Shown here: positions 4,790 through 28,086 of the stretch, piece after piece | Layout: every line of letters begins with the position of its first letter | Position numbering within the stretch: the first letter of the stretch is position 1 | Source of the DNA: a phage | Sequence record: PZ386954.1 | Strand: one strand, 5' to 3' | Length of the DNA: 42,659 nt | Notes under the pieces: generated by a model | What the model saw: the letters and a program-made list of their open reading frames with translations, nothing else | What the model was told of the DNA's origin: nothing | Database searches by the model: none | Program-made: the position numbers and the translations under genes

Positions 4790-4866
4790 TCATCTCGCCG
4801 GACAACACAGCGTCAACGTGTTGGACGGTGTAGGACGGTAACACTGCTCTTTAACAATCTGGTGTG

Positions 4867-4895
4867 TTGACAAGGCAAGCTCACTATGCTGTAAT
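4867..4895 (+). promoter_or_regulatory. sigma70-type early promoter P2 (TTGACA-N17-TGcTGTAAT)
   Basis: -35 TTGACA 4867-4872, 17-bp spacer, TGcTGTAAT ending 4895. Confidence 0.75.
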
Positions 4896-5004
4896 GCTTC
4901 CACGTCAGCCAGACAAGCCAAATAGTGATGGATAAACACGTTAACACCCACGCAGGCTAACTGGTACGGTTTAATTAACTCTGAACGGGCGCTGATTAAA
5001 TCGG

Positions 5005-5033
5005 TTGACAGGATGAAACGAGTATGCTGTAAT
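5005..5033 (+). promoter_or_regulatory. sigma70-type early promoter P3 (TTGACA-N17-TGcTGTAAT)
   Basis: -35 TTGACA 5005-5010, 17-bp spacer, TGTAAT 5028-5033. Confidence 0.75.
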
Positions 5034-5085
5034 ACACACCAGATTGACAGGGCAGCAAGCCAGTCAGTCAGAAGTAAAAAGGTAG

Positions 5086-5114
5086 TTGACAAGCTGAATA
5101 CGATGTGATGTAAT
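5086..5114 (+). promoter_or_regulatory. sigma70-type early promoter P4 (TTGACA-N17-TGaTGTAAT)
   Basis: -35 TTGACA 5086-5091, 17-bp spacer, TGTAAT 5109-5114. Confidence 0.75.
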
Positions 5115-22852: not shown

Positions 22853-23086
22853 ATGAGTCGTTATCAAAGAGCCATTGAGGACACAGTGGTTGACCGTAAA
22901 GTGTGCGGTGCCTGCATGGGTAGCGGCACCTACCGTGGCATGTTGATTGGTGGGCAGGTAGTCCTGATGGATTGCGAAGCCTGCGGCGGTACGGGTACGA
23001 ATGACCCGGCACTGCAACATTCTGTACTGAGTGACTTGGGCCAGCGCAAACAAGCGCAGCCGGGATATGACGAACCAACGGAGTAA
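22853..23086 (+). CDS. small zinc-finger protein with two CxxCxGxG motifs (DnaJ Cys-rich-like)
   Basis: CGACMGSGT and CEACGGTGT; AGGAGG SD; immediately upstream of RNAP. Confidence 0.6.
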   Translation: MSRYQRAIEDTVVDRKVCGACMGSGTYRGMLIGGQVVLMDCEACGGTGTNDPALQHSVLSDLGQRKQAQPGYDEPTE

Positions 23087-25521
23087 TGATGGACTTACTT
23101 GCAGAGCAGATTCGACTTGAAGAAGAAGCACGAGCCAGACACCGCGAGGGCTGGCTGGATAATATCAAAGAGGCGATGGCCAGTGGCCGGGCCGGGTCGG
23201 TGCCGTTGCTCCAGCGTATGATGGTAGAGGCGTATCCTCTTGTCGAAGCTGCGATGCAAGAAACCCTGAGCGAAACGACCCGTGGATATGGTGCGCAGTA
23301 CCGGACGTACATGCGTGAGATTGGCACCAAAGCGTGTGCCTCTCTCGCACTGAGCATGGCGGTGTCCGGTGCTGCGTCGGAGCAGGCGGTACTGAGTCTG
23401 CTCAAGAGCATGGGCAAGGCACTGATGGCTGAGGTGGTGTACCTCCGGGCGAAGCAGACCGGGCCACAGCAGGCGGCGTACATGGAGCGCGTTAAGCAGG
23501 ACGTGAAGAAGTCTCGCTCGAAGTCAGCGAACCACGTTTACAATAAAGCGCGTGCGTCGGCGGCGAACGTTGGGGTGGAGATTGATGTGCTACCGCAGCG
23601 TGCGCTGATTACCATTGGCAAGTTGATGATGAAGTGCGTCGAGCCAACTGGTCTGGTGTCTACGATTCGCGTCGGCGGCAACCAGCGCCAGCGCGGTACG
23701 GCACACTTCGCACTGCATGAAGATGTGCTGGCTACGATGAATGACTGGCTGGACATGCCGCGTGCCGATGGCATGTGCTGCCCACCGCTGATTATCCCAC
23801 CGAAGCAGATTGCCCCGAATGGTCGCAGTGGTATGTGGCATTCCGATGGGCAGGCAGCGATGTACCGGGTAATGAGTCGCATGAACCACAAAGGGTATCG
23901 TGCATTGAACGTTGACCCGACCCCCGTTATAGAGCCGTGTATGATGCTCAGCAGCGTTCCGTACCGAGTTAACCCAATGGTACTGGAGTTCCTGCGAACG
24001 AACCGTACAGGCGTTATGGGGCTGCCTGTGCCACCTCGTGAGCCTACACTTCCGTTTACCATCCCCGCTGGTGTGAGCTTTGCGCAGTACATCAGCAAGT
24101 TCCCACCAGAGATGCAGCAGCAGATGGATGCCGAAGCTCATGAGTACAAGGTGAAGACTCGCTTGTATTACAATGAGTTGCGTAAGTTCACGTCGCAGAT
24201 GCTGGCGTTGAATGGTGCAGTCAAAGAGGCAGACAGGTATGCGCAGTACGATAGGATTTATCTCCCGACTTACGCCGATACGCGGGGCCGAATTTATTAT
24301 TCTTCGACCCTTAACCCTCAGTCTATCGACGCGGTGCGAGCGCTGCTTGAGCTTGCGGAACCAGTGGCTCTCGGAAGCGAGGGGCTATTCTGGCTCAAGG
24401 TTCATGTTGCGAATTGCTTCGGCTACGACGCAACAGACTTCGACGACCGGGCGGCGTGGACGGACAAAACACTCCCCCGACTACGTGAGGCGTGCCGTCT
24501 TCCAGAGGCATTTGATTCGTTCTGGTCTGAGGCCGATAGCCCTATCTCAGCGTGGGCTGCATCTGTTGAACTCATTCGAGCTATCGACAGCGGAAGTCCT
24601 GAGACTTATCCCTGCCGAGTGGTTACGCAGTGGGATGCTACATGTTCAGGTCTCCAACACCTCAGCGCAATGTTACGCGATGAAGTTGGGGGTGCTGCTG
24701 TCAATCTTATCAATAGCGTGGGGCGAAAGGCAGACATATATCTCAAGACGGCAGCAGCGGCGATGCAGGCTCTTGAAGATAGTGAAGCGCAGTCACCGAC
24801 GCAGATGGGTACGTGGCTTGTTTCAATCGGCATTGTCCGGGCTATGGCCAAGAAGCCAGTGATGACCTACGTGTACGGGGCAACCCGTCACGGTATGGTG
24901 GACTACTACTGCCTGTACCTGCGAGAGAACCGGGTCAAGCTGCCGGACGGCAAGAGCCTACTGGAGTGTGCGCAGTTCATCGCAGAGTTCATGTGGAATG
25001 CAATCCCGCGTGTCGTGCCGAAAGCGGCAGAGCTGATGGCGTGGTTGCAGGCTATCGCGGTGGAGGCGGCGGCTAACGGCGAGTACGTGGAAATCATTGC
25101 GCCGTCAGGGTTGCGGGTGGTTAACCTGTACCAAGCCAGCAAGGAGACGATGCTCAACAACATCAACCTCATGGGTATCCACAGCATTAAGCTGCGCGAG
25201 TATCTGGACAAGCCGGACGGCAGGAAGTGCGCTGCTGCGATTGCTCCTAATTTCGTACACGCTATGGATGCCAGCCACATGATGAAGGTGTTGTGGGAGA
25301 TGTGGAATAACGGGGTGTTCATGGTGTCCATCCATGACTCGTTCGGTGTTGCTGCTGCTCATGCCGGGTTACTTCACAAGGTCATTCGTGAAAAGTTCGT
25401 GCAGATGTATGAGCAACATGACCCAATTCAACAACTTGCTGTGCGATACAATGCTGTTGCACCTGAACGGGGCAATCTGGACATCCAGCTTGTGAAACAA
25501 TCAAGCAAGTTTTTCTGCTGA
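23086..25521 (+). CDS. single-subunit DNA-dependent RNA polymerase (T7 gp1-like)
   Basis: 811 aa; catalytic VSIHDSFGV motif and overall T7-class RNAP layout; located directly before the structural genes as in phiKMV-like phages. Confidence 0.9.
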   Translation: MMDLLAEQIRLEEEARARHREGWLDNIKEAMASGRAGSVPLLQRMMVEAYPLVEAAMQETLSETTRGYGAQYRTYMREIGTKACASLALSMAVSGAASEQAVLSLLKSMGKALMAEVVYLRAKQTGPQQAAYMERVKQDVKKSRSKSANHVYNKARASAANVGVEIDVLPQRALITIGKLMMKCVEPTGLVSTIRVGGNQRQRGTAHFALHEDVLATMNDWLDMPRADGMCCPPLIIPPKQIAPNGRSGMWHSDGQAAMYRVMSRMNHKGYRALNVDPTPVIEPCMMLSSVPYRVNPMVLEFLRTNRTGVMGLPVPPREPTLPFTIPAGVSFAQYISKFPPEMQQQMDAEAHEYKVKTRLYYNELRKFTSQMLALNGAVKEADRYAQYDRIYLPTYADTRGRIYYSSTLNPQSIDAVRALLELAEPVALGSEGLFWLKVHVANCFGYDATDFDDRAAWTDKTLPRLREACRLPEAFDSFWSEADSPISAWAASVELIRAIDSGSPETYPCRVVTQWDATCSGLQHLSAMLRDEVGGAAVNLINSVGRKADIYLKTAAAAMQALEDSEAQSPTQMGTWLVSIGIVRAMAKKPVMTYVYGATRHGMVDYYCLYLRENRVKLPDGKSLLECAQFIAEFMWNAIPRVVPKAAELMAWLQAIAVEAAANGEYVEIIAPSGLRVVNLYQASKETMLNNINLMGIHSIKLREYLDKPDGRKCAAAIAPNFVHAMDASHMMKVLWEMWNNGVFMVSIHDSFGVAAAHAGLLHKVIREKFVQMYEQHDPIQQLAVRYNAVAPERGNLDIQLVKQSSKFFC

Positions 25522-25525
25522 TAAA

Positions 25526-25577
25526 TAGTGATATGTATCATTGACTTATATGAAAGTGTCTATAGTGATATGTATCA
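25526..25577 (+). repeat. 15-bp direct repeat TAGTGATATGTATCA, two copies (25526-25540 and 25563-25577)
   Basis: read directly in the RNAP-to-late-gene intergenic region. Confidence 0.8.
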
Positions 25578-25580
25578 CGC
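25549..25580 (+). promoter_or_regulatory. conserved element TATGAAAGTGTCTATAGTGATATGTATCACGC, candidate phage-RNAP promoter or regulatory box
   Basis: 22-nt perfect inverted match to 4613-4634; first 13 nt ATGAAAGTGTCTA also occur at the start codon of the 25839 gene. Confidence 0.45.
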
Positions 25581-25632
25581 TACCGGTAGCCCCGTCAGTG
25601 GCGGGGGTTACTGCCACTAAGAGAGGATTGTA

Positions 25633-25824
25633 ATGGGTAAAGAATCTCCATTAGAAAGAGTATCGTTCACTAAAGCTCAGTTAGCTCTACTGGAAAAACA
25701 CTTCGGAACTTGGGCGGCAGTAGGTAAGACTGTAACCCCTGATACAAACCTGCCACTGATTAACAGAGAAGCTGGTAAACAAGATGTTATCGACTTCATC
25801 CGTGAACGTGTCATTGGATTGTAG
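25633..25824 (+). CDS. hypothetical small protein (63 aa), first gene of the late region
   Basis: ATG with GAGAGGA SD. Confidence 0.6.
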   Translation: MGKESPLERVSFTKAQLALLEKHFGTWAAVGKTVTPDTNLPLINREAGKQDVIDFIRERVIGL

Positions 25825-25838
25825 GGAGAGTTGTCGGT

Positions 25839-26258
25839 ATGAAAGTGTCTACTATGGGAAATACATCACACACGACAATGCCACTCGACATTCGCCGTGC
25901 TGTGGCCGAGGGCATTCAAGCCGAGCGGCCATGGTCTGACTTATCTCCCGATGTGATTGTTGACAGCATGTACGAGGCCACCGCCTCCGGTTGTGTTGAC
26001 GTTTACATCACTGATGATGACAACAGCCTTATGGCCGTTGCGCACATCGGCAGGTTATTCGATATTCATGTGGGCGAGATGGTGGTCGTTATGGCCTCAT
26101 ACGTCTGGCCCCCGTACAGAAACCGTGGAGTGATGCGTGCCATCCTCCGTGTACTCAAAGACGTGGCCCGTTCAGAGGGTGTGCGTTGGTGCGGTTACTC
26201 CCATATGGTGCGGCCTTACGTTCAGGAGTACCGCTTCATTGATTTGGAGAAACCGTAA
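25839..26258 (+). CDS. hypothetical protein (139 aa), possible minimal GNAT-like acetyltransferase fold
   Basis: YVWPPYRNRGVMRAILRVLKDVARSEGV resembles the GNAT acetyl-CoA-binding R-x-x-G-x-(G/A) region; weak call. Confidence 0.4.
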   Translation: MKVSTMGNTSHTTMPLDIRRAVAEGIQAERPWSDLSPDVIVDSMYEATASGCVDVYITDDDNSLMAVAHIGRLFDIHVGEMVVVMASYVWPPYRNRGVMRAILRVLKDVARSEGVRWCGYSHMVRPYVQEYRFIDLEKP

Positions 26259-26518
26259 TGGGTAGCGTAGGCAAAGTATTCAAGGGCATTGGCTCGGTCT
26301 TCGGGCTGGGTAGCCAAAAGCCTCAGTACACTATCAAGACTGACCCGGCGCAGGTGAAGGCAGAAACGATGCAGGCTAACCTTGCAGCCGACCTCGCTGG
26401 TGAGAACACCCCAACCATTCAGGCAGGTGGCCAAGTAAGCTCGGCCTCTGATACGCTGGGTGGTCGCCGCCGTCGCACCGGAACTGGTGTGGCAAGTAAC
26501 CTCGGCATTGGGAGCTAA
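26258..26518 (+). CDS. small Gly-rich basic protein (86 aa), probable virion protein
   Basis: ATG overlapping upstream stop; position just before the portal gene. Confidence 0.55.
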   Translation: MGSVGKVFKGIGSVFGLGSQKPQYTIKTDPAQVKAETMQANLAADLAGENTPTIQAGGQVSSASDTLGGRRRRTGTGVASNLGIGS

Positions 26519-26520
26519 GC

Positions 26521-28086
26521 ATGACTCAAGACGCGCAGAACGTCAGCTATGAGTCTCTGTGGCAGAAGTACCGGGATAGCAACGTTGTCACCAAAGCGCG
26601 GGAATACAGCCGCTATACACTGGCCAAGCTGGTGAGCGAGTATGACCGCAGTGACGTGGACGACATGAACCGCCAGCAGATTACTCGTGATTACCAGTCT
26701 GTCGGCGCTCTGCTCGTCAACAACCTAGTTGCCAAACTGGGTGAGTTCCTGTTCCCGGCTTCCGCTCGATTCGTGAAGCTGAAATTAAACAAGGTGTCTG
26801 ACCAACAGCGGCAGTCTATGTCGCAAGTTAATCAGGCGCTTATCACTATTGAAAAGGCCATCGTAGACAAAGCCAAAGAGAATGGCGGCTACGCTGACCT
26901 GCTCCAAGCAATTGCCCAACAAGCTGTGACCGGAAACGCCGCGCTGTACCGCGATATGGAAACTGGTTCGTACCGAGTGTACGGATTGGAATCCTTCGTG
27001 GTGCAGCGCGACGGTCGTGGCGTTGTGGTGGATGCTATCGTGAAGGAGCGCATCCAGTGGGATTCTCTGCCCAAGGACTTTCAGAATGAACTGAACTCCA
27101 AAGGCTTCCGCTGCGGTGGGAACAAACGCGTATGGCTGTACACTCGTGTGCTCCGCGTCCAGAAGGACAGTGGCACGTACGGCTATGAAATCACGCAGCA
27201 GATTGGTAACTACCAAGGTTGCGTCTATACCCCCGGTAAGGATTACTACCCTGAAAAAGTCTGCCCATGGTTATTCCCAGTGTGGTCTTTGAAGTCTGGC
27301 GAGCATTACGGTCGCGGGATTGTCGAAGACCACGCTGGGGATTTCGCACGTCTGTCCATGCTGTCTGAGCACTCAGCTCTGTACATGCAGGAAGCGCTGC
27401 GCGTGCTGTGGATGCTCACTGGTTCTGGCGGCAACGTCGATGACATTGAGAGCGCAGAGACTGGTCAGGTCATTCCACTCCAGAACGGCACATCGCTGTC
27501 CGGCTTGGAGGTCGGGGATTACCAGAAAGTTCAACAGGCCCGTGACGAAATCAACCAGATTGTGCAGCGACTGGCGCAAGCCTTCATGTACACTGGCGAG
27601 TTCCGTGACTCCGAACGTACCACCGCCACCGAAGTGCAGCAGGTAGCAACCAGCGCCGAACGTGGGCTGGGTGGCCCGTACTCAATGCAGGCTAAGACCC
27701 TCCAGATTCCTCTGGCGTACGTCCTGCTCGCGGAGATTGACGAGTCCACCGTACCTGACATCGTAGGCAATATCCTGTCGCTTCAAGTTGAAGCTGGTCT
27801 GGATGCCCTCGGTCGCAGCATTGAAGCAGAGACGCTGATTCGTGCGCTCTCTGACTCGCAGGCAGCAATGGTTGCTGTCCAAAATATTAATGGCGTTGCT
27901 AACACCATCGACCCACAGAAAGTCCTTGAGGTTATCTTCGCATCCAACGGTGTTGCGCTTGACGACTATCGTAAGTCGGCACAAGACTTGGCCCAAGAAG
28001 GGCAGGCCATCGACAATGCAGCGCAGGCTGCCGCAGGCGTTCAGCCGGGCGCGGTCGATGTAGCGCCTAACATCGCACAGATTTAA
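26521..28086 (+). CDS. portal (head-tail connector) protein
   Basis: 521 aa; position and size match T7 gp8-class portals; precedes scaffold and capsid. Confidence 0.85.
   Translation: MTQDAQNVSYESLWQKYRDSNVVTKAREYSRYTLAKLVSEYDRSDVDDMNRQQITRDYQSVGALLVNNLVAKLGEFLFPASARFVKLKLNKVSDQQRQSMSQVNQALITIEKAIVDKAKENGGYADLLQAIAQQAVTGNAALYRDMETGSYRVYGLESFVVQRDGRGVVVDAIVKERIQWDSLPKDFQNELNSKGFRCGGNKRVWLYTRVLRVQKDSGTYGYEITQQIGNYQGCVYTPGKDYYPEKVCPWLFPVWSLKSGEHYGRGIVEDHAGDFARLSMLSEHSALYMQEALRVLWMLTGSGGNVDDIESAETGQVIPLQNGTSLSGLEVGDYQKVQQARDEINQIVQRLAQAFMYTGEFRDSERTTATEVQQVATSAERGLGGPYSMQAKTLQIPLAYVLLAEIDESTVPDIVGNILSLQVEAGLDALGRSIEAETLIRALSDSQAAMVAVQNINGVANTIDPQKVLEVIFASNGVALDDYRKSAQDLAQEGQAIDNAAQAAAGVQPGAVDVAPNIAQI

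Follow-up and report, generated by a model that had tools for sequence, protein, structure and literature searches.

The closest described system is Rac, the gene product gp28 of phage LUZ19 (Ceyssens et al., 2020; PMC7552054). Here, expression of Rac alone led to the cleavage of the α subunit of the P. aeruginosa RNA polymerase at Gln244/Glu245, by which the C-terminal domain is lost. Rac itself does not act as a protease in vitro. When the residues of the predicted acetyl-CoA pocket (Q-Y-V...A-R) are replaced by alanine, α is no longer cleaved, and upon Rac expression lysine acetylation rises; neither the acetylated substrate peptide nor the responsible protease was identified (PMC7552054). 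Furthermore, the cleavage depends on host proteases as well as on the Pseudomonas linker sequence EEQ/EDE and is restricted to Phikmvvirus, since LKA1, which harbors a GNAT homolog in the same genomic slot, leaves α intact (PMC7552054). The growth of P. putida was not affected by Rac.

A second example, cited in PMC7552054, is the prophage GNAT AcrVA5, which acetylates Cas12a. Being a small GNAT of a mobile element that shuts down a host protein through the acetylation of lysine, it is a precedent for the action proposed below. However, no specific similarity to the protein described here was detected, the top fold matches do not include it, and its genomic context is different.

The window, the whole stretch of DNA that was analyzed (42,659 nucleotides, PZ386954.1), is a complete Bonnellvirus genome (Autographiviridae) in circularly permuted form. 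In the region of the GNAT gene it shares ~99% identity with Escherichia phage aldrigsur; the counterpart there, aldrigsur_9, is located between the RNA polymerase and portal genes and labelled 'hypothetical protein'. Three GTTGACA-N17-TGTAAT repeats are found at positions 4866, 5004 and 5085 (4866-5114), which are probably strong early sigma-70 promoters; if so, they would mark the left end of the genome and the window would be the permuted whole genome.

The preliminary description had placed an open reading frame of 139 amino acids between the genes of the phage RNA polymerase and the portal protein, and this arrangement was confirmed (Table 1). Compared with orthologs of 72-98% protein identity, the gene has a dN/dS ratio of 0.09-0.18, which indicates that it is genuine and subject to strong purifying selection. 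Its stop codon overlaps the start of the downstream gene (TAATG at 26256-60), and the gene of the 86-aa protein is translationally coupled to it. A scan for sigma-70 promoters around the GNAT gene found none, and one terminator-like hairpin within the reading frame (25974) did not exceed chance level.

Table 1. Coordinates of the features of the GNAT locus within the window.
Feature	Coordinates	Strand	Remarks
Phage single-subunit RNA polymerase	23086..25521	+	Left edge of the conserved block; annotations of aldrigsur/Lidtsur
111-nt intergenic region	25522..25632	+	Two palindromic 15-mers, GC-rich hairpins; fold z = -3.55
ORF of 63 aa, in the position of LUZ19 gp27	25633..25824	+	phrog_6575, E 1.2e-4
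Shine-Dalgarno core GGAG	25825..25828	+	10 nt 5' of the ATG; read from the sequence
Rac-family minimal GNAT-fold protein, 139 aa	25839..26258	+	ATG to TAA ORF, 139 codons, stop included
Residues 75-79, D-I-H-V-G	26061..26075	+	β3/β4 turn; most conserved motif of the family
Residues 88-100, YVWPPYRNRGVMR	26100..26138	+	End of β4, pyrophosphate-binding loop, start of α3; GNAT motif A
Residues 116-122, RWCGYSH	26184..26204	+	Strand β5, with the conserved S/T-H of the family at its end
Small virion protein of 86 aa, homologous to LUZ19 gp29	26258..26518	+	phrog_35536 'virion structural protein', E 4.9e-47
Portal protein	26521..28086	+	Right edge of the conserved block; annotations of aldrigsur/Lidtsur

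Upstream of the coding string, the intergenic region contains the palindromic 15-mer TAGTGATATGTATCA in two exact copies at 25526 and 25563, which flank TTGACTTATATGAAAGTGTCTA and are followed by the GC-rich hairpins. The core 'ACTTA.ATGAAAGT.ACTG' of this gap is conserved in Lidtsur and J8-65. The region may serve as a transcription signal for the string of the gp27-like, GNAT and virion protein genes, and could act as a promoter or terminator of the phage RNA polymerase or as an operator. A 14-mer, TATGAAAGTGTCTA, is present in this region (25549-25562) and again across the start codon of the GNAT gene (25838-25851), 289 nt apart, and the same resemblance is seen in Lidtsur and J8-65. As a promoter motif throughout the window the 14-mer was rejected, with 6 loose matches against 1.8 expected.

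The small neighboring genes are homologous to those of LUZ19. The 63-aa ORF matches LUZ19 gp27 weakly in BLASTP (E 0.014), and its position is conserved in Bonnellvirus (Lidtsur), LUZ19 and LKA1. For the 86-aa protein, basic at both ends and of low complexity in between, the similarity to LUZ19 gp29 is 40% identity over 55 aa (BLASTP, E 7e-7). The order of RNA polymerase, a 60-80-aa ORF, GNAT, a ~90-aa virion protein, portal, scaffold and capsid is common to LUZ19, LKA1, Lidtsur and the window. Here, a profile-based locus search with the close alignment yielded 6 near relatives, and the wider context was taken from annotated phage records. Like rac, the GNAT gene is located directly 3' of the phage RNA polymerase gene and overlaps the first structural gene.

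The relationship to Rac is also found in the protein itself. Among the PHROGs, the protein falls into phrog_3986, the family of LUZ19 gp28 (E 2.1e-35), and the profile of the Bonnellvirus family aligns with LUZ19 Rac with a probability of 98% (hhalign, E 1.8e-13, 108 columns), while pairwise BLASTP with Rac gives E 5e-8 at ~28% identity. The protein is 54% identical to LIMEzero ORF36, which is listed in the homolog table of the Rac study (PMC7552054). The Lidtsur ortholog (78% identical) carries the RefSeq name 'GNAT family N-acetyltransferase', and two orthologs are named 'N-acetyltransferase domain-containing protein' in UniRef. Using a distant family member as tblastn query, 153 phage records were obtained, mostly of Pseudomonas phiKMV-like phages and including LUZ19 'gp28: GNAT family N-acetyltransferase'. 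The gene is thus a new, uncharacterized but ordinary member of the already described Rac family, in which a close ortholog is annotated as GNAT, and not a new kind of enzyme.

In several deposited phiKMV-like genomes (OL802210; PMC7552054, Table A1), the Rac ortholog is labelled 'putative diguanylate cyclase/phosphodiesterase', which looks like a propagated misannotation. The family profile also matched a 3393-aa metagenomic protein (P0021) with E 8.5e-40. This was rejected as a homolog, since weak chance matches over 31 repeat stretches had been summed, of the type 'VDVLVTDIHDN' against 'VDVYITDDDN'; it calls for caution with repeat proteins in profile searches.

The preliminary description had called the protein GNAT-like on the basis of a segment resembling the acetyl-CoA-binding motif. 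This call is supported, and the resemblance goes beyond chance. In the search against GNAT profiles, residues 31-115 match Pfam PF00583 (Acetyltransf_1) with 23.4 bits (E 7.4e-5), which slightly exceeds the gathering cut-off of 20.7 bits; for orthologs the score is 30-31 bits, and they pass PF13508 too. Of the 74 members of a family alignment, which were collected by an exhaustive profile search over 1.84 billion representatives, 58 match PF00583 individually, the best of them with E 3.3e-16. A search of NCBIfam with the protein gave no match, and as a single sequence it retrieved nothing significant from the PDB sequences, the best GNAT having an E of ~1. The family profiles, in contrast to the single sequence, do reach solved GNATs among the PDB sequences. 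Here, the best match is the thialysine N-ε-acetyltransferase 8yv7 (E 1.2e-8, residues 13-121), followed by spermidine/spermine acetyltransferases.

These nearest solved relatives would fit an enzyme that acetylates a small molecule, such as a polyamine or a thialysine-like amine, and not a protein, as would the aminoglycoside acetyltransferases found among the top fold matches. However, the similarity is limited to the generic β3-β4-α3 core, and NatD and RimI, both N-terminal acetyltransferases of proteins, score equally well. The Glu/Asp positions that serve substrate binding or catalysis in β4 of SSAT appear not to be conserved in the alignment, and for Rac it is the acetylation of protein lysines that increases (PMC7552054). 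A small-molecule substrate is for these reasons considered very improbable.

An AlphaFold2 model based on 17 homologs reached a pLDDT of 86.7 and a pTM of 0.82, and its elements are arranged as β1-α1-α2-β2-β3-β4-α3-β5-β6. The canonical order of GNATs is β1-α1-α2-β2-β3-β4-α3-β5-α4-β6(-β7), in which a β-bulge in β4 and the V-shaped opening between β4 and β5 hold the pantetheine and helix α4 helps to hold CoA. SSAT and thialysine enzymes have 160-171 aa, with α4 and β6-β7, and carry the catalytic Tyr in α4. The predicted order corresponds to the canonical one from β1 to β5, whereas α4 and the seventh strand are missing from the model. The alignments to Pfam and PDB GNATs, including those to the SSAT/thialysine enzymes (8yv7, 2b3u, 2bei), all end at β5, and the protein terminates 17 residues further on, for which a single strand was modeled. 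The last 20 residues are of low confidence (pLDDT 54-63). Since the relatives from the profile search nearly all have 134-146 aa and the model of T7 gp7 contains a β5-β6 hairpin as well, the minimal size is a trait of the family and not an artefact of truncation. The C-terminal Y-x-x-x-Y-R was considered as a remnant of the α4 helix 'L-Y-x-x-x-G-F' and rejected in favor of a β5-β6 hairpin, which is modeled with a pLDDT of 81-90 in T7 gp7 and likewise, at low confidence, in the window protein. All in all, the protein almost certainly adopts the Rac-family GNAT fold.

The pyrophosphate loop in motif A of GNATs is Q/R-x-x-G-x-G/A and lies between β4 and α3. The segment that the preliminary description had singled out (VWPPYRNRGVMRAILRVLKDVARSEG, residues 89-114, 26103-26180) covers the end of β4, this loop and helix α3, which make up motif A. 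Its loop reads R94-N-R-G97-V-M99, with the Arg and the first Gly kept and Met taking the place of Gly/Ala at the end. Throughout the family, R94 is present in 70, P91 in 67 and G97 in 46 of the 74 members, and position 99 is A/G in 39. The most conserved motif is the β3/β4 turn with D75 (73/74), H77 (69/74), V (70/74) and G79 (74/74). At the end of β5, S/T121 is found in 72 and H122 in 56 members, while the preceding R116-W117-C118 is specific to the Bonnellvirus/LIMEzero clade, in which it is invariant together with W32.

In the alignment with Rac, the motif A segment of Table 1 is the equivalent of the mutated 'QYV...AR' pocket. Here, Q-Y-V...(9 aa)...A/V-R of Rac corresponds to S87-Y88-V89...M99-R100, so that three of five residues (Y88, V89 and R100) are identical, and both proteins share the P-x-Y-R-x-x-G loop. 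They are also alike in the genomic slot, the minimal GNAT architecture and the overlap of the gene end with the first structural gene. They differ in that Rac has 157 aa, whereas the window protein lacks the basic C-terminal tail, in the pocket exchanges Q to S and V/A to M, and in the hosts, which are P. aeruginosa for Rac and Enterobacteriaceae for the phage analyzed here. With respect to the family consensus, the window clade deviates by Q87 to S, A/G99 to M, R123 to M and Y133 to F, the β6 Tyr being present in 72 of the 74 members; R94-x-x-G97, Y88, V89 and R100 are retained. The exchange of Y133 was considered as a loss of a catalytic Tyr, but by strand pairing this residue more likely faces the core. 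These deviations together with the missing α4 leave real room for an altered or lost catalysis.

Based on the homology to Rac, the following mode of action is proposed. A Rac-family GNAT core of ~140 aa without α4, ending in a β5-β6 hairpin and encoded within a tightly packed, translationally coupled string right after the phage RNA polymerase gene, would bind acetyl-CoA in the cleft formed by β4-loop-α3 and β4-β5. It would then acetylate one or more host proteins during host takeover, in the way that has been suggested for LUZ19 Rac. We infer acetyl-CoA binding, catalysis, a protein and not a small molecule as substrate as well as the timing of expression, and assign to an active protein acetyltransferase of host takeover a probability of roughly 60%.

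A narrower version of this proposal would be that the protein acts exactly like LUZ19 Rac, that is, a host factor is acetylated, the C-terminal domain of α is proteolyzed and host transcription is shut off. The homology and the identical slot beside the phage RNA polymerase gene are in line with it, as is the dependence of Rac on its acetyl-CoA pocket (PMC7552054). However, the phenotype is confined to Phikmvvirus and the cleavage needs host proteases and the EEQ/EDE linker of Pseudomonas. The GNAT homolog of LKA1, ORF39 (YP_001522880, Stubburvirus; annotated with 125 aa), occupies the same slot and does not provoke α cleavage, so that the Rac phenotype does not follow from membership in the family. 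In sequence, this LKA1 protein (39% identity over β4-α3-β5-β6, E 6e-13) resembles the window protein more closely than Rac does (E 5e-8). Since in addition P. putida grows normally with Rac, the phenotype cannot simply be transferred to the Bonnellvirus protein, and an identical action is regarded as distinctly unlikely.

A more distant connection leads to gene 7 of T7, which represents the family phrog_2746. Its product gp7 (NP_041992) has 133 aa and is annotated only as 'host range'. This family is the second PHROGs match of the window protein (E 6.7e-11), although limited to residues 48-118 and far behind phrog_3986, and it is matched below 1e-5 by 36 of the 74 relatives. In BLASTP, the window protein and T7 gp7 share 26% identity over 69 aa (E 1e-4). 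An alignment of 11 gp7 members scored 74% against the close family in hhalign (E 2.8e-5, 93 columns; 68-74% across comparisons) and 45% against the broad family with T7 removed, so that the profile-profile support is moderate. Models of gp7 homologs in BFVD, named 'host specificity protein A' and 'host range protein', rank among the best viral fold matches to the window protein (E 1e-5 to 1e-7, TM 0.58-0.68). Furthermore, the AlphaFold2 model of the gp7 family (pLDDT 90.3) displays an order of elements identical to that of the window protein.

On the level of single residues, T7 gp7 resembles the window protein in D-x-H..G, in the Pro before α3 and in the Phe that aligns with residue 133, and D-I-H-V-G is retained in its family as D-I-H-H-K-G. 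On the contrary, the R-x-x-G loop is degenerate ('PEADSKG', with the Arg lost) and the 'Y-T-H-R' motif is not conserved. None of the 11 gp7 members matches a Pfam GNAT family, and the gp7 family alone gave no GNAT signal against the PDB sequences. T7 gp7 is nevertheless quite probably homologous to the Rac-like GNATs. A literature search for the biochemistry of T7 gene 7 or a link between gp7 and acetyltransferases returned nothing relevant, and no paper stating this connection was found.

The position of the genes is similar as well, with the order 7 - 7.3 - 7.7 - 8 in T7 and GNAT - 86-aa virion protein - portal in the window. A 2026 preprint proposed the small pre-portal protein of phiKMV-like phages as functional ortholog of T7 gp7.3, an 'ejection wedge' placed between the portal and the ejection proteins. 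BLASTP detected no sequence similarity between the 86-aa protein and T7 gp7.3, and the equivalence of the two is a proposal resting on the preprint, not on sequence.

Since gp7 lacks the Arg of R-x-x-G but keeps D-x-H-x-x-G, the function shared by both branches need not be acetyl transfer. This opens the view that the window protein is a non-catalytic pseudoenzyme with a GNAT fold, which acts by binding and is perhaps tied to the ejection/portal module and to the infectivity of the particle. The distant kinship to gp7 in sequence, BFVD fold matches and predicted topology, the absence of a GNAT sequence signal in the gp7 branch, the conserved slot upstream of the small pre-portal virion protein and the pocket deviations of the window clade would fit, and the label 'host range' of T7 gene 7 suggests a role in infectivity. 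However, R94-x-x-G97, Y88, V89 and R100 are kept under strong purifying selection, pocket mutations abolish the function of the one member tested (Rac), and the annotation as particle protein belongs to the adjacent gp29-like protein and not to the GNAT protein. A pseudoenzyme is therefore judged unlikely, and an active acetyltransferase is the preferred reading.

A related and equally speculative idea, which we hold to be unlikely, is that the Rac-like GNATs and T7 gene 7 represent one ancient gene of the Autographiviridae, fixed in the slot before the ejection or 'wedge' protein and the portal, with an ancestral role in infectivity or ejection. If true, the ancestral function would be set by the D-x-H-(V)-G turn and the β5-β6 hairpin and not by the acetyl-CoA loop, and it would explain the 'host range' phenotype of T7. 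The cleavage of RNA polymerase α would then be a late specialization of Phikmvvirus, and the Bonnellvirus protein, whose pocket is altered in part, an intermediate.

With the assignment given here, the 'hypothetical protein' of aldrigsur-like coliphages can be annotated as a Rac-family GNAT. The current view of phage biology stays unchanged by this unless the target proves unusual. Nevertheless, a likely enzyme of host takeover is flagged in phages whose hosts, E. coli and Enterobacter, are readily studied by genetics and acetylomics, a setting that could help to find the substrate and the protease pathway behind Rac. For T7 gene 7, a classic gene of this phage, sharing the same truncated GNAT topology and the same slot would offer a first entry point on the level of structure.
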